Shown here: positions 1 to 9,974 of the stretch, in pieces | Layout of the letters: the number at the start of each line of letters is the position of its first letter | How positions within the stretch are numbered: the first letter of the stretch is position 1 | Origin: Candidatus Micrarchaeia archaeon | GTDB lineage: Archaea > Micrarchaeota > Micrarchaeia > Micrarchaeales > CABMGC01 | Reading direction: 5' to 3' | DNA: 10,214 nt | Assembly (NCBI GenBank): GCA_049976845.1 | Contig: JBMFHL010000027.1 | Coordinates: forward strand, 1 to 10,214 | Program-made: the position numbers and the translations under genes | Notes under the pieces: generated by a model | Databases searched by the model: none | Seen by the model: only the letters and a program-made list of their open reading frames with translations | What the model was told of the DNA's origin: nothing

Positions 1-557
1 CTTTTTTTGTACATGTGGTATTCGAAAAAGAGGCTAAAGCGATATGCATAGTTTATTGCCAATATGCCTCTGTCTGCAAGCGCAAGATATGAATTTGCTA
101 TAAAATTCTCTTCCAGAAACTGCTTTGGTATCCTGTCGTTTATGTATGCATCGAGTATTATTATATCATAGCTATTTTTCTTCCTCATCACGAATTCTGC
201 GCCATCTTCTATATATATGCTGAATTGACTCATATCCAGCTTCAGGAATTCGCTTGCTATATCTATCATCTTTTTGTTTACCTCCACTATATCTATTGAT
301 ATTTTTCCGTCAAAAACTGTCTTCATCTGATATGGGATTGTGCCTCCGCCGAGGCCAATGAGGAGCATCCTTGGATTGTCAAAAATAAGTGGTAATGGCA
401 AGAAGAAGTCCCAATACATATGTGTATATATTGAATTGTCGTCCAGCATCGAGTAGGTTATGTTGTTGTATTTCACTACCTGCTTGCTTCCTTGCCTCTC
501 GATTAAGGTATTTGGATCAGCAGCCTGCGAGTTTTTATTCTCGTTCCCTGTGTGCAT
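1..557 (-). CDS. Spermidine-synthase-like class I SAM-binding protein (probable methyltransferase or aminopropyltransferase), 3' end runs off the window
   Basis: Absent from the ORF track. Manual translation from ATG at 557 stays open to base 1 (185 codons): MHTGNENKNSQAADPNTLIERQGSKQVVKYNNITYSMLDDNSIYTHVYWDFFLPLPLIFDNPRMLLIGLGGGTIPYQ...IDIVEVNKKMIDIA...EDGAEFV...YDIIILDAY...GILAIN. It has the Gly-rich SAM motif, the acidic residue after beta2, and the DG and YDIIILD motifs. It overlaps the 3' end of the MGMT gene by 23 nt. Confidence 0.85.
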   Translation of the reverse strand, partial: MHTGNENKNSQAADPNTLIERQGSKQVVKYNNITYSMLDDNSIYTHMYWDFFLPLPLIFDNPRMLLIGLGGGTIPYQMKTVFDGKISIDIVEVNKKMIDIASEFLKLDMSQFSIYIEDGAEFVMRKKNSYDIIILDAYINDRIPKQFLEENFIANSYLALADRGILAINYAYRFSLFFEYHMYKK

Positions 558-849
558 AACTCTCACTTATCAGAAGCTTCATCTTTTTCTTTACGCCACC
601 ATATGAGTATTTTCCCAAAGAGCCGTTGCTCATTATTACCCTGTGGCAAGGTATTTTTATTGGCATGGGATTCTTTGCTAAAGCGTTTCCAACAGCCCTG
701 TAAGCATTAGGCCTCTTTATTTCCTGCGCTATCTGCTTGTATGACTTTACCTCGCCTTTTTTTATACTTGAGACTGCAAGCAATACTTCTACTTCAAAAT
801 CAGTAAGGGCAAAAGTCTCTAGCTTCCTTCTAAGTGTTTCCACAGGCAT
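535..849 (-). CDS. ogt: Methylated-DNA--protein-cysteine methyltransferase (MGMT/Ogt family), single C-terminal domain
   Basis: 104 aa with the PCHRV active-site motif, the helix-turn-helix region SYKQIA...AYRAVGNAL, and a C-terminal LGKYSYGG...KMKLLISE. Confidence 0.93.
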   Translation of the reverse strand: MPVETLRRKLETFALTDFEVEVLLAVSSIKKGEVKSYKQIAQEIKRPNAYRAVGNALAKNPMPIKIPCHRVIMSNGSLGKYSYGGVKKKMKLLISESYAHRERE

Positions 850-901: not shown

Positions 902-3556
902 TCATGCTGTGCTTTTGGCATTTGCACCGTTGACTGCGGCCCTTGCAGCTGCAAGCTTTGCGACAGGTATCCTGCTCTGCGACATGCTTACATAATCTAT
1001 GCCTGCAGTATTGAAGAATTCTATCGAATCTGGATCGCCGCCGTGCTCACCGCATACTCCAACCTCAAGATTCTTGTTTGCATTCTTGCCTTCTTGTGCG
1101 CAGATTTTTATAAGGCGTCCAACGCCGTTGACGTCTACCTGCGCAAACGGATCCTGCGGCAAAACTTTGTTTTCTAGATAGAAGGGCATGAACTTTGCCT
1201 CGACATCGTCCCTGCTGAATGCAAATGTCGCCTGTGTGAGGTCATTTGTGCCAAACGAAAAGAACTCGGCATATTTTGCCAACTCGGGGGCAATTAGCGA
1301 TGCCCTTGGAGTTTCTATCATTGTGCCGAACTTGAACCTAAGCCTTTTGCCCATCCTTTTGAATGTCTCTTCTGCTGTATTCATCACTATATCCTTTGCC
1401 ATTGCAAGCTCCCCTGCTATTGCCACCTGCGAGATCATTATCTCTGGCATTACCTTTTTGCCTTTCTTTGCCAATTCTATTGCCGCTTCTAATATAGCTT
1501 CCACTTGCATCTGGTAAATTTCCTTGTAGACTATTCCCAACCTGACGCCGCGCTGGCCCATCATTGGATTTGCCTCTTTCAATTCCATGACTTTGCCCAT
1601 AAGCATTTCAAGCTCTTCGAGCTTCTTGCTATTCCTTGCATTGCCCTTGCTGCACTTTAACTTCTCAACCTCTTTTACAATTTCCTCGAGCTTTGGAAGG
1701 AATTCGTGCAATGGCATGTCGATAAGCCTTATTGTGATGGGTTTTCCTTTTGCTATTTCAAACATCTCCCTGAAATCTTCTTTTTGTAGAGGTTTTATCA
1801 TGCTAAGGTATTTTTTTCTCTCTTCGGTGCTACCAGCAAGGATCATCCTTCTCACAAGCTCAAGCCTGTCCTGCGAGTTGAACATTCGCTCTGTCCTTGC
1901 AAGGCCTATGCCTTCAGCGCCGTTCTCTATTGCTTTCTTCACCATCTCCGGCGTGTCTGCGTTAGCTCTTATGCCCAGTTTTTTATACTTGTCTGCAATG
2001 CCGAGCACTTTTGATATGCTATAAGTTAGCTTTGGCTCTATTAGAGGTGCTGCGCCCTTGTATACCTTGCCTTCTGTGCCGTCTATTGTTATGATGTCGC
2101 CTTCTAGTACTGCAATGCCATTAGAAACGAATGAGTTGTTTTTGATTTCGATGCCGCTGCCTACTATGCACGGCTTGCCCATGCCCCTTGTTACTACAGC
2201 CGCATGGCTCGTCATGCCTCCCCTGCTTGTGAGTATTCCGTCGCTAATTGCTATGCCTTTTATGTCCTCTGGCGTAGTTTCATTCCTCACAAGTATTACG
2301 CTCTCGCCTTTTGCCTTCATTTCTACGGCCTTGCTTATTTCGAATACTGCCTTGCCAAGCGCCGCGCCCGGAGATGCGGGCATTCCGCTTGCAATTGCTT
2401 TACCAGTATACTTCTTGTCTATCTGCTTGTGCAGAAGCCTCTCCAATTGCTCTGGCTCAACCCTTAGCAGAACATCTTTTTCTGAGATTAGATTTTCTTT
2501 GAGCATGTCTATTGCTATCTTTACTGCCGCCTGAGGGGTCCTTTTGCCGTTTCTTGTTTGCAGCATGTAGAACTTGCTATTTTCTATTGTGAACTCGAAA
2601 TCCTGCATGTCCTTGAAATATTTCTCGAGCTTTGATGCGGTGCTTTCGAGCTCTTTGTACACATTGGGTATTCTTTCTCTTAGCTCCTCAGCAGGCATCG
2701 GCGTCCTTATGCCCGATACTACGTCTTCGCCCTGTGCATTCATGAGGACCTCTGCATAGAGCTTTTTCTCTCCTGTTGATGGGTTTCTTGTAAATGCAAC
2801 GCCTGTGCCAGAATTGCTGTTGTAATTCCCGTATACCATAGATACTATGTTTACGGCAGTGCCCATTGAATCAGATATATTGTATATTCTTCTATATTCT
2901 GCAGCGCGCTTGTTCCACCATGACTCGAATATTGCTCCTACTGACATAAGCAATTGCTTTTTGGGCTCCTGCTCAAGCTCCATTCCAGTTTCTTTTTTTA
3001 TTATTGCCTTGAATGCTTCTGCTACTTCTTTCATCGCATCTCCATCAAGCTCGCTGTCGCTTTTGGCACCTTTCTTTGCCTTTATTCTTTCAAAAGCCGA
3101 GTCAAAATTAGATTTGTCTATTTTCAAAACTATGCTGCCGAAAAGTTGCATGAATCGTCTGTATGTATCGTATGCAAACCTGTCGCCATTGCGAAGGGAC
3201 ATTGCCTCTGCTATTTCGTCATTTATGCCGAGGTTGAGTATTGTGTCCATCATGCCTGGCATTGACATTGGAGCGCCAGAGCGCACTGACACAAGCAAGG
3301 GATTTTTCTTGTCGCCGAATTTCTTACCTGTCAATTTTTCGAGGCCATGCATCTTCGCATAGATTTTGGCTTCTATGCTAGGCCAGAGGCCATGTTCTTC
3401 AAAGTATTTGTTGCACATCCTTGTTGTTATAACTATGCCTGGAGGCACAGGCAGATTTATCCTTGTCATCTCTACTAAACCATATCCCTTGCCACCTAGC
3501 TCAGCTTTTGTAAGGCCAAGCTTCGCAGCTTCTTTGAATAAATAAACTTCGTCCAT
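902..3556 (-). CDS. ppdK: Pyruvate, phosphate dikinase
   Basis: Motifs LGGKG, PLLVSVRSGA.SMPGMMDT, SGTGVAFTRNPSTG, AQGEDVVSG, phospho-His GGMTSHAAVV, FFSFGTNDLTQ and GVCGEHGGDP. I prefer the ATG at 3556, 5 nt after a GGTG, over the track's GTG at 3562. Confidence 0.97.
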   Translation of the reverse strand: MDEVYLFKEAAKLGLTKAELGGKGYGLVEMTRINLPVPPGIVITTRMCNKYFEEHGLWPSIEAKIYAKMHGLEKLTGKKFGDKKNPLLVSVRSGAPMSMPGMMDTILNLGINDEIAEAMSLRNGDRFAYDTYRRFMQLFGSIVLKIDKSNFDSAFERIKAKKGAKSDSELDGDAMKEVAEAFKAIIKKETGMELEQEPKKQLLMSVGAIFESWWNKRAAEYRRIYNISDSMGTAVNIVSMVYGNYNSNSGTGVAFTRNPSTGEKKLYAEVLMNAQGEDVVSGIRTPMPAEELRERIPNVYKELESTASKLEKYFKDMQDFEFTIENSKFYMLQTRNGKRTPQAAVKIAIDMLKENLISEKDVLLRVEPEQLERLLHKQIDKKYTGKAIASGMPASPGAALGKAVFEISKAVEMKAKGESVILVRNETTPEDIKGIAISDGILTSRGGMTSHAAVVTRGMGKPCIVGSGIEIKNNSFVSNGIAVLEGDIITIDGTEGKVYKGAAPLIEPKLTYSISKVLGIADKYKKLGIRANADTPEMVKKAIENGAEGIGLARTERMFNSQDRLELVRRMILAGSTEERKKYLSMIKPLQKEDFREMFEIAKGKPITIRLIDMPLHEFLPKLEEIVKEVEKLKCSKGNARNSKKLEELEMLMGKVMELKEANPMMGQRGVRLGIVYKEIYQMQVEAILEAAIELAKKGKKVMPEIMISQVAIAGELAMAKDIVMNTAEETFKRMGKRLRFKFGTMIETPRASLIAPELAKYAEFFSFGTNDLTQATFAFSRDDVEAKFMPFYLENKVLPQDPFAQVDVNGVGRLIKICAQEGKNANKNLEVGVCGEHGGDPDSIEFFNTAGIDYVSMSQSRIPVAKLAAARAAVNGANAKSTA

Positions 3557-3565
3557 GCACACACC

Positions 3566-3589
3566 AAACGCATTATTAAACGCATTATT
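3566..3589. repeat. Perfect 12-bp tandem duplication (AAACGCATTATT x2), followed by degenerate ATTATT-rich units to about 3645
   Basis: Read directly: 3566-3577 and 3578-3589 are identical. Confidence 0.85.
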
Positions 3590-3724
3590 AGAATCATTAT
3601 ATTAGAGTTATTACTATGTATATTATTAGAATTATTGAATTATTATGTAAAATTTCAAATAGTGGTATGATAATGACAATATTATAGTATTATAGGACAT
3701 TAGTATGGCAGTAGAATAAAATAA

Positions 3725-3752
3725 ACGATATAATTATAAAATTCAAGCTTGA
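3725..3752 (+). promoter_or_regulatory. Putative archaeal promoter (TATA box TTATAAAA at 3734-3741) with adjacent palindrome TCAAGCTTGA (3743-3752)
   Basis: The TATA-like box lies about 30 nt upstream of ATG 3769 and there is no obvious Shine-Dalgarno, which fits a short-leader transcript. The region is very AT-rich, so the exact placement is uncertain. Confidence 0.55.
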
Positions 3753-3768
3753 TGTATTATTGAGCTAG

Positions 3769-4599
3769 ATGGGAGACAAAGAGCTTTACAAAATTGTTAA
3801 TGACATAAAAGAGTTAAGGATACAGGGCGCAGAGAGGATTGCAAGGGCAGCCGCAGACGCCTGGGAGAGCGCGAAAGACAAGAAGCTCGCTAGCAGGCTT
3901 CTTGCTGGAACTAGGCCTACCGAGCCTATGCTAAAGAATGTAATAAAGTATCTCAACCTCTTTGGAGATACAGAAACTATAGACACTTACATAGATACTA
4001 CTCTTGACAAGATAGTAAAATTTGGATCCGCACTGATTAGGAATAATTCGATTGTGTACACGCACTGCCATTCATCGACTGTAGAGAAGGTGCTTGAATT
4101 TGCACATGAAGAAGGAAAGAGATTCCAGGTGAATGTAACTGAAACGAGGCCAAACTACCAAGGGCGCATAACCGCGACTAACCTTGCGAAGAAAGGGATA
4201 AAAGTGAATTTCTTTGTAGATTCTGCAGCACTGAGCGCGCTGAGGAATGCAGATATTATGCTCATAGGCGCTGATGCAATAACCTCATCTGGCGAGGTTG
4301 TAAACAAAATAGGCAGCGGGCTTTTTGCAAAGGTCGCGAGCGATCTTGAGATACCTGTGTATGTAGCGGCGCATTCGCTTAAAGTAGATCCAAAGACAAG
4401 CTATGGCGTGCTTGAAAAGATAGAGAAGAGGAGCCAGGGAGAGGTTTGGAGCAAGAGACCAAGAGGTGTAAAGATTGTGGATCCTGTATTTGAAGTTATA
4501 CAGAAGGAGCATATCAATGCTGTAATAAGCGAGTTTGGACTAGTGAGCCCCGATTTGCTTGTTGAAAAAGTGAAGAATACTTATCAATGGATGTGGTAG
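3769..4599 (+). CDS. Ribose-1,5-bisphosphate isomerase (eIF-2B alpha/MtnA-like family)
   Basis: Motifs IQGA, TRPTEP, THCHS (catalytic Cys), TETRP, GADAI (catalytic Asp) and NKIG. Its position next to RuBisCO and AMP phosphorylase supports this substrate. Confidence 0.9.
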   Translation: MGDKELYKIVNDIKELRIQGAERIARAAADAWESAKDKKLASRLLAGTRPTEPMLKNVIKYLNLFGDTETIDTYIDTTLDKIVKFGSALIRNNSIVYTHCHSSTVEKVLEFAHEEGKRFQVNVTETRPNYQGRITATNLAKKGIKVNFFVDSAALSALRNADIMLIGADAITSSGEVVNKIGSGLFAKVASDLEIPVYVAAHSLKVDPKTSYGVLEKIEKRSQGEVWSKRPRGVKIVDPVFEVIQKEHINAVISEFGLVSPDLLVEKVKNTYQWMW

Positions 4600-4600
4600 C

Positions 4601-5893
4601 ATGAATGACCCATATACAGATTTTGTGGATTTGAAATATAAGCCAAGTGATAGTGATATTATCTGCCTTTTTAGGGTGGAGCCGGCAAAGGGCATAAGTA
4701 TAAAGGAAGCGATAGGCAGGGTTGCAAGCGAGAGCAGCAACGGCACATGGGCAGAGCTGACAACGCTAAAAGAGCATATAAGGGACATAAGGGCAAGGGC
4801 GTTTTCAATAAGGGGCAATTACGTCAAAGTGGCATATCCGATAGAGCTCTTCGAATTCGGAAGCGTGCCACAGCTCATGAGCTCGGTTGCAGGCAACATC
4901 TTCGGCATGAAAGCGCTAAAGAACCTGAGGCTAGAGGATATAACATTTCCAGAAATTTATTTGAAGCACTTCAAAGGCCCACAGTTCGGTATAGACGGCG
5001 TCTTTGGGAAGATATTCAAGATGAAAAACAGAAGGCCATTGCTTGCACATGTGCCAAAGCCAAAGGTTGGAATGTACACAAGCGAGCATGCAAATGTGGC
5101 GAAGAATGCTTGGCTCGGTGGCGTTGATTTGCTGAAAGACGACGAGAACCTCACAAGCCAGGGCTTCAATACATTCGACAACAGGATGAAGCTGATGTTC
5201 AAGTATAGGGATTTTGCAGAGAAGGAAACTGGGGAGAAGAAGAGTTATCTAGCAAATATAACAGCAGAAACTAACGAGATGATAAGGAGGGCGAAGCTTG
5301 TAAAGGACCTTGGAGGTGAGTATGTTATGGTAGATATACTTACTGCTGGCTGGTCCGGGTTGCAGACGGTTAGAGACGCGTGTGAGGACCTAGGCCTTGC
5401 GATACACGCACACAGGGCATTCCATGCAGCATTTACAAGGAACCCGAAGCACGGGATGAGCATGCTTGTAGTTGCAAAGCTAGCCAGGCTTATAGGCGTA
5501 GACCAAATACACATAGGGACAGTTGTTGGCAAGCTCAAGGGCTCTAGAAGGGAAGTTGTTGATTTGGATATTGAAGAGACAATGCAACATATACAGGAGC
5601 ACAAGGATGTGCTCACTGAAGACTGGCACAGCATAAAACCTGTTGTTCCTGTATCTAGCGGTGGTCTTCATCCTGGGCTTGTGCCATATGTTATGAAACT
5701 GCTTGGCAACAGCATTGTAATACAAGCCGGCGGAGGCATAGACGGCCATCCGAAAGGAGTAAAACAAGGTGCAATGGCAATGAGGCAGGCAATAGAAGCA
5801 ACAATGCAGGGAGAAGAGCTTAATGAATATGCAAAGAATCATGCGGCACTGAAGAGCGCCCTGGATTACTGGGGATTCGAAAAACCTGTGTAA
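4601..5893 (+). CDS. rbcL: Form III (archaeal, III-b-like) ribulose-1,5-bisphosphate carboxylase large subunit
   Basis: Motifs ESSNGTW, GNIFGMK, VPKPKVG (K175/K177), GVDLLKDDE (K201/D203/E204), HAHRAFH (H294/R295), IHIGTVVGKL (H327/K334), SSGG and GGG..GHP (spinach numbering). No small subunit gene is present in the window. Confidence 0.96.
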   Translation: MNDPYTDFVDLKYKPSDSDIICLFRVEPAKGISIKEAIGRVASESSNGTWAELTTLKEHIRDIRARAFSIRGNYVKVAYPIELFEFGSVPQLMSSVAGNIFGMKALKNLRLEDITFPEIYLKHFKGPQFGIDGVFGKIFKMKNRRPLLAHVPKPKVGMYTSEHANVAKNAWLGGVDLLKDDENLTSQGFNTFDNRMKLMFKYRDFAEKETGEKKSYLANITAETNEMIRRAKLVKDLGGEYVMVDILTAGWSGLQTVRDACEDLGLAIHAHRAFHAAFTRNPKHGMSMLVVAKLARLIGVDQIHIGTVVGKLKGSRREVVDLDIEETMQHIQEHKDVLTEDWHSIKPVVPVSSGGLHPGLVPYVMKLLGNSIVIQAGGGIDGHPKGVKQGAMAMRQAIEATMQGEELNEYAKNHAALKSALDYWGFEKPV

Positions 5894-5903
5894 GCATAGT
5901 ATT

Positions 5904-5908
5904 GGTGA
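5904..5908 (+). promoter_or_regulatory. Archaeal-type Shine-Dalgarno GGTGA for AMP phosphorylase
   Basis: GGTGA lies 7 nt before ATG 5916. Confidence 0.7.
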
Positions 5909-5915
5909 GTTCGAA

Positions 5916-7454
5916 ATGATCTTCAAGGTTAGGAACTTGGATATAGAAACTGGGGCTTCTGTAGCAATGCTTAATGAATATGATGCAAATGGCATGGGCT
6001 TGCATGCGAGCGACAGGATAGAAATAAAAATTAGAAGGAATAGGGCGATAGCGATAGTCAACATAGCAAATTTCATGAAAAGCAAGAGCATAGGGCTTAC
6101 TGCCGAGCTTCGCAACGAACTTGAGGCCAAGGACAATGACGATGCAGAAGTTAATATAGCAGTGCAGCCGAAGTCACTCGTGGCAATAAAGGAAAAGCTC
6201 AACGGCAGGAGGCTTGACTACCAGGGGGCTTACGAGATAATAAGAGACACTGTAAATGGCAAGCTCGACAGGGAGGAGCTCACCGCATTTGTAGTTGCTT
6301 TGCATGCACACGGCATAGACATTGAGGAAGCGACTTATATATCAAACGCGATGGTAAATACTGGCGAAGAATTGAAGCTCAAGAAAAAAAGGATCTATGA
6401 CAAGCATTCTATAGGAGGCGTACCAGGGGACAAGACAACGCTACTTGTAGTACCGATAGTTGCTGCTGCCGGGCTCACTATACCGAAGACTTCTTCAAGG
6501 GCCATAACTTCAGCAGCCGGAACCGCAGACAGAGCAGAAGTGCTCATGCCCGTAAACTTAGGCATAAGCGAGATGAAGAGCACTATTGAAAAGACAAACG
6601 GCTGCATTGTTTGGGGAGGAGCAGTGCATCTTGCTCCTGCCGACGATATGCTCATAAAGATAGAGTATCCTTTTTCAATAGACCCACTGCTGCTTCCAAG
6701 CATAATGTCGAAGAAGAAGGCCGTTGGGTCTACTGATTTGATATTGGATATACCTATAGGAGAAACTGTAAAGGTAAAGAATAAGACAGAGGCCGAGATG
6801 CTTGTTAGAGATTTTTCTTCGCTCGGCGAGAGGCTGAATATTAATGTGAACGGTGCTATAACTTATGGCGAACAGCCGGTTGGCTATGCAATAGGAGCCG
6901 CTGCCGAGGCAAGGGAGGCGCTTGCCACCATAACAAGAAAGAAAATTGCAGAAGATTTGGTTGACAAGGCAACGAGCATAGCAGGTATCCTGCTTGAAAT
7001 GAGCGGCAATGCAAATGGAAAGAAATTGGCAAGGGACATATTGCTCAACGGATCAGCTGAAAAAAAGCTCAGGGAGATTATAGCCGAGCAGGGCGGAGAC
7101 GAGAATATAAAAACAGACGATATAGAAATTGGAAGCAACAGCATCACTATTCATTCCGAATTCGATGGCAAGGTTATGCAGTTCGACAACATTGCGCTCG
7201 CCTATGCGGCAAGGCTTGCCGGTGCGCCTGGGAACAAGAAGGCTGCAGTAATATTGCACAAGAAGCTCGGCGATGCTGTGGCTAAGGGCGAGGCCTTGAT
7301 GACAATATATTCTGATAGCGTTGCAAAGGCGAAGGATGCAGAAAGCTATGCAAAAAGCAATGGAGCAATTATTGTAGGGAAGGGCAACATGATGCTGATA
7401 AAGAGAGTAATAGAGAAAAAGCTAACTCCGCTACGCTTCACATTAGAGAGATAG
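5916..7454 (+). CDS. deoA: AMP (nucleoside-5'-monophosphate) phosphorylase, thymidine phosphorylase family
   Basis: 512 aa with the N-terminal extension typical of AMP phosphorylases, plus DKHSIGGVPGDK, IPKTSSRAITSAAGTAD, LAPADD, SIMSKK and ARLAGAP motifs. Confidence 0.95.
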   Translation: MIFKVRNLDIETGASVAMLNEYDANGMGLHASDRIEIKIRRNRAIAIVNIANFMKSKSIGLTAELRNELEAKDNDDAEVNIAVQPKSLVAIKEKLNGRRLDYQGAYEIIRDTVNGKLDREELTAFVVALHAHGIDIEEATYISNAMVNTGEELKLKKKRIYDKHSIGGVPGDKTTLLVVPIVAAAGLTIPKTSSRAITSAAGTADRAEVLMPVNLGISEMKSTIEKTNGCIVWGGAVHLAPADDMLIKIEYPFSIDPLLLPSIMSKKKAVGSTDLILDIPIGETVKVKNKTEAEMLVRDFSSLGERLNINVNGAITYGEQPVGYAIGAAAEAREALATITRKKIAEDLVDKATSIAGILLEMSGNANGKKLARDILLNGSAEKKLREIIAEQGGDENIKTDDIEIGSNSITIHSEFDGKVMQFDNIALAYAARLAGAPGNKKAAVILHKKLGDAVAKGEALMTIYSDSVAKAKDAESYAKSNGAIIVGKGNMMLIKRVIEKKLTPLRFTLER

Positions 7455-7478
7455 TATTATAGTTAATATTATAGTTAA
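7455..7478. repeat. Perfect 12-bp tandem duplication (TATTATAGTTAA x2); possible internal promoter or operator
   Basis: Read directly: 7455-7466 and 7467-7478 are identical and begin immediately after the AMP phosphorylase stop codon. Confidence 0.8.
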
Positions 7479-7529
7479 CTTTGGCGCATGCTGAAGCGCG
7501 TGAGCTTGTTGCTCAGAATAGGTGATGTA

Positions 7530-8765
7530 ATAAAATATATGCTTGTTGTCCTCGATGGCGCGGCAGATAGGAAAAATGCAGTGCTTCGGGGCATGACTCC
7601 GCTGCAAGACGCACACATGAATAATCTTAACAATATTGCAAGGAGATCTGCTGCTGGCATGATGTATCCAATAGCAAAAGGCATAGCACCAGAATCCGAT
7701 TCTGCTGTTTTCTCGCTGCTTAGCTATGATATAAAGAGGTATACAGGGAGAGGGGCTATAGAGGCTTATGGCAGTGGAATCAATGTAAGGGATAGTGACC
7801 TTGCGCTGCGCACCAACTTCGCGACTGTTGACAATGAGCTCAATATAATTGACAGGCGCGCTGGCAGGAGCATAACAAGAATCGAAGCGCGCGGCTTAGA
7901 GTACATAATAAACAAGATAAAGCTCAGCAGCGGCGTTCAATTCAGGTTCAAGGCGACTATTGGGCACAGGGGCGTAGTTGTTTTTTACGGCAACAACGCA
8001 AAGCTTTCTCAGAATATATCGAATGCTGACATAGGGTATGCAAGGAAAGGAAGCATTTCAATAGCGCAGAAAAAAAGCGCTGGGAAGCTCTTGAAGGTTG
8101 TTCCACTTACAAAGGACAAAAGCGCGGCTTATACTGCCAATATCGTGAATGAATTTATAGAGAGGGCGCACGCGGCGCTCTCAGCTGCGGAGATAAACAA
8201 TAGAAGAAAAGCCAGAGGCTTTCCGGAAGCGAATGCGCTGCTGCTCAGGGATGCTGGCCTCGGCTTGCCGAAGGTTGAATTTATAGGTAAGAAATTCGGC
8301 ATGCGCTTTTCTTTTATAACGGAGATGCCCGTTGAGAATGGCATAGCCAAATTGTTAGGCATGCGCGAGATTCGTTTTAGAAGTGCACTCAAAGGTGAAA
8401 GCAGGTATAGCAAAATTGCAGCACTTGCAAAAATGCATGCTAGTGAATGCGATTTCATGTACATACACATAAAAGGGCCCGATGAGCCGGGGCATGACGG
8501 CAATGCAATTGCTAAAGCAGAAGTGCTCAAAGAAATTGACTCGGGATTCTTCTCGCATTTCAATGGGGAAAAAAAGGTTAGAATCTGCGTGACCTGCGAC
8601 CATTCGACGCCATGTGAGCTAAAGGCCCATTCTTCAGATCCCGTACCAGTGATAATAAGTGGCATTGCATCAGACAATATGAATTTTGACGAGTCAATAG
8701 ATTCGAAGGGCTCGCTCGGCATTTTTAGGGGCGTTAACCTAATAAAGAAGATAATAAGTGGTTGA
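7530..8765 (+). CDS. apgM: 2,3-bisphosphoglycerate-independent phosphoglycerate mutase, archaeal ApgM type (start uncertain: 7488, 7530 or 7539)
   Basis: Motifs LDGAAD, PESD (phospho-acceptor Ser), YTGRG..EA.G, RTNFAT, DRRAGR, HIKGPDEPGHDG, DHSTP and HSSDPVP. A strong SD (AGGTGAT, 7520-7526) lies downstream of the track's ATG at 7488. Confidence 0.92.
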   Translation: MKYMLVVLDGAADRKNAVLRGMTPLQDAHMNNLNNIARRSAAGMMYPIAKGIAPESDSAVFSLLSYDIKRYTGRGAIEAYGSGINVRDSDLALRTNFATVDNELNIIDRRAGRSITRIEARGLEYIINKIKLSSGVQFRFKATIGHRGVVVFYGNNAKLSQNISNADIGYARKGSISIAQKKSAGKLLKVVPLTKDKSAAYTANIVNEFIERAHAALSAAEINNRRKARGFPEANALLLRDAGLGLPKVEFIGKKFGMRFSFITEMPVENGIAKLLGMREIRFRSALKGESRYSKIAALAKMHASECDFMYIHIKGPDEPGHDGNAIAKAEVLKEIDSGFFSHFNGEKKVRICVTCDHSTPCELKAHSSDPVPVIISGIASDNMNFDESIDSKGSLGIFRGVNLIKKIISG

Positions 8766-9974
8766 ATGCAGATAAAAAAAATAACGTTGAGAAAGATCCT
8801 TGACTCGCGCGGCTTGGACACTGTTGAAGCTAGCGTATTTGACAATAAGGGCAACTTTGCTACCGCTTCTTCGCCGAGCGGCACGAGCAGGAGCGTGTAT
8901 GAAGCAGCGCCTTTTCCAAAAGGCAATGTTGAATTAGGCATAGCGAATTTCAAAAAAAACGAAAACAAGATCATTGGCGCAGACCCTGGTGACCAGGGCG
9001 CGGTTGATGCGCTGCTTCACGAGATAGATGCAACAGATAATTTTGCATTCATAGGCGGCAACACCGCTACAGCAATATCAATAGCAAATGCGAAACTCGC
9101 TGCTGCTGAATGCGGCTGCGAGCTCTATCAATATGTTTACGATATTGTAAAAAGATTTGGAATAAAAAAAAGGATGCCTAGACTCTTGGGCAATGTGATA
9201 GGAGGCGGAGTACACTCTAACAATGGAATGAGTATACAAGAGGTACTTGTGGCAAGCGATACTGGCTCTGTGTATGGAAATGCAGTTTCAAACATTTCAA
9301 TATATAGGGAGATTGGGGAGTACCTTAAGAAAAGGGGGCTTGCAATTGGCACAAACATAGAAAATGCTTGGAGTTCAAGGCTTGGGGACGAGGAGAGCAT
9401 AGCACTTGTCAAGAGAATCGCAAGCAATAAAAGGAAAAGGGTGCTTGTTGGAATAGATGTGGCAGCCAGCGAGCTTTATGATGGCAAGTACCGCTTTGAA
9501 AATAGGCGCATGGGCAGAGAAGCGTTTATAAGAAAAATGGAATCAATTTTTAACAAGTATAAATTAGGATATATTGAGGACCCGCTAGAATCGGCTGACT
9601 TTTTAGGTTTTGCATTAATAACAAAGAATTTCAGTAGGAGTGCGCTAGTGGTGGGCGATGATCTCTATGCTACGAATTCACGCAGATTGATGAAAGGCAT
9701 AAGGCTAAAATCTACAAATGCCTTACTCATAAAAGTAAACCAGGCAGGCACGCTCACAGATACAATAGAAACTGTCAGGGAAGCACATAGGAATAATATT
9801 AAGATAGTAGTTTCGCACAGGAGTGGCGAGACAAATGATATATTTATATCGCATTTGTCTGTAGCATTCGGTGCCGAGCTGATGAAGTGCGGAGTTACAG
9901 GAGGGGAGAGGATTGCGAAGATAAACGAACTCGCAAGGATTGAAGCGATTGAGCTTTCAAACAGAAATAAATAA
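8766..9974 (+). CDS. eno: Enolase (short archaeal type)
   Basis: Motifs ILDSRG, PSG.S, NVIGGGVH, IQE, GIDVAASE, YIEDP, VGDDL, LIKVNQ, SHRSGET and ERIAKINEL. The ATG directly follows the apgM TGA. Confidence 0.95.
   Translation: MQIKKITLRKILDSRGLDTVEASVFDNKGNFATASSPSGTSRSVYEAAPFPKGNVELGIANFKKNENKIIGADPGDQGAVDALLHEIDATDNFAFIGGNTATAISIANAKLAAAECGCELYQYVYDIVKRFGIKKRMPRLLGNVIGGGVHSNNGMSIQEVLVASDTGSVYGNAVSNISIYREIGEYLKKRGLAIGTNIENAWSSRLGDEESIALVKRIASNKRKRVLVGIDVAASELYDGKYRFENRRMGREAFIRKMESIFNKYKLGYIEDPLESADFLGFALITKNFSRSALVVGDDLYATNSRRLMKGIRLKSTNALLIKVNQAGTLTDTIETVREAHRNNIKIVVSHRSGETNDIFISHLSVAFGAELMKCGVTGGERIAKINELARIEAIELSNRNK

Follow-up and report, generated by a model that had tools for sequence, protein, structure and literature searches.

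A conserved Micrarchaeia gene cluster joining the AMP-RuBisCO pathway to lower glycolysis and pyruvate phosphate dikinase: a probable unit of nucleotide catabolism

Introduction

The view that DPANN archaea subsist on nucleic acids scavenged from their surroundings has so far been based on the scattered presence of genes in metagenome-assembled genomes (MAGs). A 10,214-nt stretch of DNA from a Micrarchaeia archaeon (contig JBMFHL010000027.1 of assembly GCA_049976845.1), hereafter the window, carries at positions 902-9974 six genes that raise a more precise question: do they form a dedicated route by which nucleotides are degraded for energy, and does the pyruvate phosphate dikinase gene (ppdK) among them belong to that route? 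The window is one entire contig (C27) of the host genome G000, a 731-kb Micrarchaeia MAG of 52 contigs that is ~90% complete with 1% contamination. The answer favoured here, with a probability of about 0.65, is that the cluster would be a conserved catabolic unit of one Micrarchaeia family, by which scavenged nucleoside monophosphates (AMP foremost) and CO2 would be converted to pyruvate, energy being conserved at the last step.

Gene content of the cluster

Genes were called from an open reading frame (ORF) list together with two family libraries (TIGRFAM-type models with cut-offs, and Pfam domains), and catalytic motifs were judged from alignments to proteins of solved structure. The features are the following, each gene with its family model, score and cut-off.

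902-3556, minus strand: ppdK, pyruvate phosphate dikinase (PPDK), 884 aa from the ATG at 3556; TIGR01828, 1200.5 bits, cut-off 843.45
3557-3768: divergent spacer between ppdK and e2b2, 212 bp, AT-rich
3769-4599, plus strand: e2b2, ribose-1,5-bisphosphate (R15P) isomerase-like, 276 aa, short form; TIGR00511, 189.7, below the cut-off of 314.1
4601-5893, plus strand: rbcL, form III RuBisCO, 430 aa; TIGR03326, 604.4, cut-off 497.45
5916-7454, plus strand: deoA, AMP phosphorylase (AMPase), 512 aa; TIGR03327, 560.5, cut-off 535
7488-8765, plus strand: apgM, archaeal cofactor-independent phosphoglycerate mutase (ApgM), 425 aa; TIGR00306, 352.9, cut-off 320
8766-9974, plus strand: eno, divergent enolase, 402 aa; TIGR01060, 301.2, cut-off 300

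The five plus-strand genes, from e2b2 to eno, are separated by gaps of 1, 22, 33 and 0 bp. A preliminary description, made from the letters of the window, had already placed six genes around a divergent spacer and named their products; the ORF list and both libraries agree on the positions, and family scores and motifs agree with the names, that of the e2b2 product being probable. The predicted identities of all six genes are indeed backed by family assignments and by retained catalytic motifs. The ppdK product contains the Pfam domains PPDK_N, PEP-utilizers and PEP-utilizers_C, aligns with the Clostridium symbiosum PPDK (1kbl) at 888 bits, retains both the phospho-histidine motif (GGMTSHAAV) and the C-terminal Cys motif (CGEHGGDP), and scores far under the cut-offs of the phosphoenolpyruvate (PEP) synthase models; its start is likelier to be the ATG at 3556 than the GTG at 3562 given in the ORF list. 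The solved proteins nearest to the e2b2 product are R15P isomerases (Pyrococcus horikoshii 5yfj, E 8e-45; Thermococcus kodakarensis 3a11, E 2e-42), the match to the 5-methylthioribose-1-phosphate isomerase 1t9k being much weaker (E 4e-25) and aIF2B also far behind. Alignment to these structures shows that it retains the Cys of the THCHS motif and the Asp of GADAIT, which we take to be the catalytic residues; the Asp position is the residue that differs (GAD versus GAN) between two deposited 5yf* sequences. The e2b2 product is thus a probable, not a certain, R15P isomerase.

The rbcL product aligns with the archaeal RuBisCO 6hun at 468 bits and retains the PKPK, KDDE, HAHRAFH, SSGG and GGG motifs. 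The deoA product aligns with the AMPase chain 4ga5 from residue 3 on and therefore includes the AMPase-specific N-terminal domain; its close homologs in Micrarchaeia MAGs are annotated as AMP phosphorylase, and these homologs and related contigs bear the labels Candidatus Micrarchaeia, Micrarchaeaceae or Micrarchaeota. The apgM product contains the PhosphMutase and Metalloenzyme domains and finds its best solved matches in the ApgM structures 3kd8 and 2zkt (190 bits); it passes the cut-off of the subfamily model TIGR00306 and falls short of that of the equivalog model NF003104 (331.5 against 489). Its relatives align only from residues 11-16 on, and translation probably begins at Met18 (7539). 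Finally, the eno product contains Enolase_N and Enolase_C, aligns with the Methanocaldococcus jannaschii enolase 2pa6 at 211 bits and retains SHRSGET, KVNQ, EDP and GDD, with a divergent GDEGGF loop that reads NIENAW.

Conservation of the gene order

Synteny was followed in 13 AMPase loci fetched from relatives of the same order. The e2b2-rbcL-deoA trio is present in all 13, and the order e2b2-rbcL-deoA-apgM, with apgM straight after deoA, recurs in 11 of them at only 50-85% protein identity, which argues for an arrangement beyond chance. The eno gene lies within the locus in 8/13 (displaced by ~2.6 kb in two of the eight), and a divergent ppdK stands beside e2b2 in 7/13, across the genera g1, g2, g14 and g15, with spacers of ~120 bp to 2.6 kb. 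Another three loci stop within ~250 bp of e2b2, so that ppdK is not visible there. In G016 and G037, ppdK is on a separate contig despite several kb of fetched flank on the e2b2 side. The preliminary description had presented the joining of all six genes as the distinctive trait of the locus: in relatives this stands for the order of the operon and for the divergent ppdK of seven loci, and does not stand for ppdK in genus g11 (G016, G094, G103) or in G037, where it is unlinked from the operon. On its other side, ppdK is flanked at window positions 3-849 by a fragment of a speE-like aminopropyltransferase gene and by ogt (methylguanine methyltransferase); this flank is upstream of ppdK and outside the cluster, and it is the same in congeners, indicating a stable chromosomal position.

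Beyond these relatives the picture changes. In a phylum sample of 300 genomes, AMPase is encoded in 162/172 genomes of other families of the class (~40% identity) and is rare in the order of the window (10/53 genomes in its own family, 0/75 in the sister family). In the other families, ppdK occurs in 24/172 genomes and never on the AMPase contig in the 15 for which both coordinates are listed; 20 of their AMPase loci show an e2b2-deoA pairing (e2b2 in 14/20), and rbcL, enolase or a true ppdK was found adjacent to AMPase in 0/20. A broad survey of all prokaryote species genomes gave 80 AMPase loci, of which three are Micrarchaeota already counted. Within 10 kb of AMPase in the remaining 77, ppdK was found in 0/77, enolase in 3/77 and ApgM in 13/77, counts that are lower bounds, many of these loci being clipped by contig ends. 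The 13 loci in which ApgM adjoins deoA belong to five Bathyarchaeia (L023, L024, L026, L039, L086), where ApgM is divergent from and directly beside AMP phosphorylase, five Aenigmatarchaeota (L064, L073, L077, L095, L096) and three other archaea (L078, L094, L098), and the ApgM models are the best families for 9/9 scanned ApgM neighbours. This adjacency, of which literature searches turned up no report, hints at an independent link between the consumption of 3-phosphoglycerate (3-PGA) and the AMP pathway. The complete set of six in this arrangement is confined to one Micrarchaeia family; a looser association of deoA with apgM is met again in other phyla.

Distribution of ppdK and pyruvate kinase among relatives

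Gene content was compared in 60 relatives of the same order as the window. The counts below overstate independence, since the relatives are kin and genes sharing one contig vanish jointly from a MAG.

AMPase: 13/60 relatives
Enolase: 18/60; 13/13 with AMPase, 5/47 without
ApgM: 15/60; 13/13 with AMPase, 2/47 without
Full-length ppdK: 13/60; 10/13 with AMPase, 3/47 without
Pyruvate kinase (PK): 15/60; 1/13 with AMPase, 14/47 without
Phosphoglycerate kinase (PGK): 3/60; 1/13 with AMPase, 2/47 without
Membrane H+-pyrophosphatase (H+-PPase): 31/60; 10/13 with AMPase, 21/47 without

The AMPase-bearing relatives without ppdK are G001 (79% complete), G027 (73% complete) and G018, the last being the sole AMPase-bearing relative with PK. 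Among module-bearing relatives, the distributions of ppdK and PK are complementary, and PK, which the preliminary description had named as an alternative exit for PEP that would undermine its scheme, is confined to a single one of the 13, the one in which ppdK was not found. H+-PPase is encoded in 12/13 ppdK-bearing relatives versus 3/15 PK-bearing ones.

These distributions bear on a first alternative, in which the five-gene operon would be a true AMP-to-PEP pathway and ppdK a mere neighbour, kept in place by descent and neither co-regulated with the operon nor dedicated to it. Consistent with this, ppdK lies on the opposite strand with a spacer of its own, is unlinked from the operon in the genomes named above, and stands in module-less relatives beside unrelated genes, its neighbourhoods there showing no conserved or metabolic partners; the conserved flanks of the locus (speE and ogt, uppS and DUF2070) would likewise mark a stable, vertically inherited position. 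However, the module needs either ppdK or PK to dispose of PEP, and ppdK is present in 10/13 module-bearing relatives while the lone PK-bearer is without it; the adjacency of ppdK has been kept over four genera despite insertions of apt or regulator genes between ppdK and e2b2; and the searches of G000 gave no second enzyme for the conversion of PEP to pyruvate. A merely neighbouring ppdK is thus considered unlikely.

Two side observations concern the same genes. In G017 (C10; L133:7584-12083), one of the three PGK-bearing relatives and one in which AMPase was not found, PK, apt, apgM and eno form a cluster that appears to be the conventional lower-glycolysis equivalent of that of the window. 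In addition, single in-frame stops are reported in ppdK (TAA in G005, C22:6374-8998; TGA in G085, C37:507-3119) and in apgM (TAG in G019, C5:31150-32382; TGA in G033, C65:1019-2257); pseudogenes, recoding or errors of assembly may account for them.

Metabolic context in the host genome

G000 was queried by targeted family searches, the absences being provisional at ~90% completeness. PK was not found, nor were PGK and glyceraldehyde-3-phosphate dehydrogenase (GAPDH), nor a soluble pyrophosphatase (PPase) of either family I or family II (DHHA2 domain). A second PPDK_N domain was not found either; the ppdK of the window is the sole PPDK_N-bearing gene, and G000 is therefore predicted to have no PEP synthase. 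The preliminary description had singled out PK, PEP synthase, pyrophosphatase and upper glycolysis or gluconeogenesis as points to look at in this genome, and the search results for PK, PEP synthase, soluble PPase, PGK and GAPDH are in its favour. Taken at face value, the lack of PGK and GAPDH means that 3-PGA can flow only downward, and, as a PfkB kinase was not found, no ribose-1-phosphate kinase route is predicted.

The genome does encode a membrane H+-PPase, whose gene is divided between contigs C5 (at its end) and C6 (at its start), the A and B subunits of an A-type ATPase, two 2-oxoacid:ferredoxin oxidoreductases (OFOR) and an ADP-forming acetyl-CoA synthetase (ACD), with adjacent alpha and beta genes. 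PPDK and the membrane H+-PPase are the two sinks of pyrophosphate (PPi) found. A 189-aa ORF is archaeal-adenylate-kinase-like, below the cut-off (NF003122, 120.6 against 155), and a Pfam ADK search gave weak P-loop matches only. Adenine phosphoribosyltransferase (apt) was not found in G000.

This context, together with the gene order, also bears on a second alternative, in which RuBisCO would serve CO2 fixation or act on ribulose-1,5-bisphosphate from another source (derived from phosphoribulokinase or from phosphoribosyl pyrophosphate), and not the breakdown of nucleoside monophosphates. Form III RuBisCO can serve reductive hexulose-phosphate or phosphoribulokinase-linked routes in some archaea. 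Nevertheless, rbcL is here the middle gene of the classical AMP-pathway trio, 1 bp from e2b2 and 22 bp from deoA, and PGK and GAPDH for the regeneration of sugars were not found in G000 (phosphoribulokinase was not searched for). Such a role is very improbable here.

Proposed pathway and the pyrophosphate question

In the catabolic reading, AMP phosphorylase would convert AMP and Pi to adenine and ribose-1,5-bisphosphate, which the e2b2 protein would isomerize to ribulose-1,5-bisphosphate; form III RuBisCO would then combine the latter with CO2 to give two 3-PGA, ApgM and enolase would yield two PEP, and PPDK, the sole PEP-to-pyruvate enzyme found in G000, would catalyse PEP + AMP + PPi -> pyruvate + ATP + Pi. 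The sum given in the preliminary description was re-derived, with water added, as 3 AMP + CO2 + 2 PPi -> adenine + 2 pyruvate + 2 ATP + Pi + H2O. The module had also been called self-contained, a term that does not hold: beyond the window, the two OFORs and the ADP-forming acetyl-CoA synthetase can carry pyruvate further, probably to acetate with the formation of more ATP. PPDK could recharge the AMP and PPi that aminoacyl-tRNA synthetases and polymerases release, while ADP would be recharged by the acetyl-CoA synthetase. With PPDK fed in this way by biosynthesis, catabolic flux would be capped by the release of PPi, a modest reading that fits the data best. We infer the substrates, the direction of flux, the co-transcription of the operon and the source of PPi from sequence. 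The ATP-forming direction of PPDK is favoured because neither PK nor PEP synthase was found, because ppdK and PK are complementary and because PGK is lacking.

A third alternative concerns this last step. The cluster could serve carbon supply or salvage, with PPDK working mainly in the PEP-forming direction or as a near-equilibrium buffer between the pools of PEP, pyruvate and PPi, ATP then coming from ACD and the ATPase. PPDK is freely reversible and occurs in relatives in which enolase was not found, OFOR with ACD and the A-type ATPase offer other routes to ATP, and the supply of PPi on which ATP formation by PPDK would depend is unproven. On the other hand, PGK and GAPDH were not found in G000 and PGK is present in only 1/13 module-bearing relatives, which leaves no gluconeogenic use for PEP or 3-PGA, and no other exit for PEP was found (PK and PEP synthase not found; PEP carboxylase, PEP carboxykinase and serine or other biosynthetic routes from 3-PGA or PEP not searched for). 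A cluster devoted to supply or salvage therefore appears improbable, although less so than a RuBisCO that serves CO2 fixation.

Several points weigh against the catabolic reading itself. The direction of PPDK is not readable from sequence. The score of the e2b2 product is under the cut-off of its own best family, and that of the eno product barely reaches its cut-off. The unlinked ppdK of genus g11 and of G037, the provisional nature of the absences and the kinship of the relatives count on the same side. Moreover, ppdK is present without AMPase in three of the 60 relatives, namely G025 and G039 (L127, L128), in which ppdK is full-length and enolase, ApgM and AMPase were not found, and G060, which has enolase; PPDK must therefore have some role outside the module. 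The weak point of the mechanism is the supply of PPi, of which the route demands two per AMP degraded. According to the available text of PMC7380578, Clostridium thermocellum, which has no PK, runs PPDK glycolytically, biosynthetic PPi falls short of the glycolytic demand, and a membrane PPase is proposed as a possible source. The glycolytic use of PPDK in this organism, the best studied of its kind, is a precedent that speaks for the catabolic reading. In view of that report on PPi, the idea of the preliminary description that waste PPi suffices is unproven.

Accessory genes, divergent spacer and origin

Relatives carry further genes in the cluster. In genera g2 and g15, the interval from ppdK to e2b2 contains apt (TIGR01090, 219-232 bits, cut-off 185.85; copies at L014:7243-7794, L015:1281-1889 and L010:12924-13724), and in G017 (L133:9000-9548) and G030 (C14:10645-11136) it directly abuts PK, so that apt neighbours either PEP-to-pyruvate enzyme, whichever a genome has. 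It is encoded in 37/60 relatives of the order, and its product acts on adenine, the by-product of AMP phosphorylase. In these two genera, apgM and eno are separated by the genes of a regulator of 334-351 aa with two Lrp/AsnC-type helix-turn-helix (HTH) domains and of an EamA-family transporter, and a double-HTH regulator without the transporter lies between ppdK and e2b2 in g14 (regulator or pair at L015:6848-9250, L010:5537-7937 and L011:5453-6484). In the genus of the window, four genomes have a divergent regulator/EamA pair, 33-37% identical to these, immediately ahead of the H+-PPase gene (G000, C5:33943-37516, L144; L137, L139, L140).

In the divergent spacer, alignment of four same-genus genomes reveals a near-invariant promoter-like block, AAACGATA.AA.TATAAAATTCAA, at 3723-3746, that is 23-46 nt ahead of the e2b2 ATG, which may be an archaeal TATA/B recognition element (BRE) for a near-leaderless operon transcript. 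A scan for bacterial promoters and terminators, which is not applicable to archaea, gave chance-level counts only. Next to the ppdK start, a stretch of ~68 bp (3566-3633) of the G000 spacer is missing from the three aligned congeners; it carries a 12-bp direct repeat, AACGCATTATTA (3569-3580 and 3582-3593).

The origin of the operon was approached with a FastTree phylogeny of AMPase of 110 rows (the window and 109/110 loci, one locus with a split match having been dropped). The AMPases of the family (support 99) are sister to a Bathyarchaeia/Nitrososphaerota/Methanothrix group (97) and stand apart from the clade of other Micrarchaeia families (100); they are ~54% identical to the Bathyarchaeia enzymes, versus ~40-44% to those of other families of their own class (L006-L018 versus L107-L126). 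In an approximately unbiased (AU) test of 48 rows, in which the group was chosen after seeing the tree, a single Micrarchaeia clade is not clearly rejected (p 0.0503, log-likelihood difference 45). A lateral acquisition of the operon by the family is suggested by these data, followed by vertical descent within the family, as the conserved flanks indicate (speE with ogt at one end, uppS with DUF2070 at the opposite end). In G000, uppS and DUF2070 are on a 2-kb contig, C42, which probably continues C27. As a separate observation, two bacterially binned contigs (L061, in a Krumholzibacteriaceae MAG, and L068, in a Desulfaltia MAG) carry e2b2-rbcL-deoA, and their AMPases nest in a Bathyarchaeia clade at very short distances, which points to mis-binning or recent transfer.

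These elements can be drawn into a wider and more tentative reading, in which catabolism would be hard-wired to PPi. With PPDK as the sole exit for PEP, the carbon flux from AMP to pyruvate would be tied 1:1 to the supply of PPi; PPDK would share one economy of PPi, ATP and ion gradient with the A-type ATPase and with the H+-PPase, besides which no further PPi enzyme was found; the regulator/EamA pair could be an element of common control and transport; and the operon may have come laterally from a TACK-like donor. Taken jointly, these propositions are doubtful.

Significance and comparison with known systems

To the earlier basis in scattered genes, the present analysis adds an AMP pathway whose genes are tightly joined to apgM and eno, with ppdK alongside, a gene set gained or lost jointly, and carriers that largely appear to lack PGK, GAPDH and PK. 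Combined, this evidence is the strongest genomic argument so far for an energy-yielding catabolism over mere salvage in these organisms, and it points to PPi as a controlling currency. The locus also offers a compact six-gene set for reconstitution, which is predicted to form ATP and 13C-pyruvate when given AMP, PPi, Pi and 13C-bicarbonate.

The AMP/pentose-bisphosphate pathway of Thermococcus kodakarensis is reported to consist of AMP phosphorylase, R15P isomerase and form III RuBisCO (Sato 2007 and Aono 2012 and 2015, as cited in PMC6389311 and PMC9563170). The window encodes the same three enzyme families, with AMPase and RuBisCO above cut-offs and catalytic motifs retained. Unlike the T. 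kodakarensis pathway, its trio is in one operon with ApgM and enolase and is paired with ppdK, its probable R15P isomerase is short (276 aa) and below the family cut-off, and there is no upper glycolysis or gluconeogenesis to take up 3-PGA, PGK and GAPDH not having been found in G000.

A RuBisCO AMP pathway coupled to lower glycolysis has been published for DPANN and for candidate phyla radiation (CPR) organisms (available text of PMC9563170, PMC9723730 and PMC6389311), and in the Nanohaloarchaeota 'Nucleotidisoterales', where upper glycolysis is missing, it is explicitly termed nucleotide fermentation (available text of PMC9563170). As to the linkage, no paper was found on an operon joining e2b2-rbcL-deoA to apgM, eno and ppdK, in a search that left subscription literature and supplements outside. 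The pathway idea is known; the tight, conserved gene arrangement with ppdK appears to be new and is a useful piece of support for that idea. As in the Nucleotidisoterales (PMC9563170) and in lake DPANN MAGs (PMC9723730), G000 combines an AMP pathway that would lead into lower glycolysis with the lack of upper glycolysis and with a way from pyruvate to acetate. Unlike these, for which the available text gives gpmI and pps and does not describe clustering, the window uses ApgM, PPDK and one conserved locus; with PPDK in place of PEP synthase, its ATP-forming step needs PPi.

The profile of G000, with PPDK for the conversion of PEP to pyruvate, a membrane H+-PPase and no PK found, resembles that of C. 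thermocellum as given in the available text of PMC7380578; a soluble PPase was also not found in G000. The differences from that account are that there is no context of sugar glycolysis, PPi-dependent phosphofructokinase or malate shunt, that the feedstock would be a nucleotide, and that AMP, the co-substrate of the PPDK of the window, would double as carbon source. Finally, the window resembles the AMP loci of other archaea (Bathyarchaeia, Aenigmatarchaeota, Nitrososphaerota, Methanothrix and others) in that e2b2, rbcL and deoA are often adjacent there, and differs from them in its further partners: enolase is near in only 3/77 of those loci and ppdK in none, whereas the window has both.

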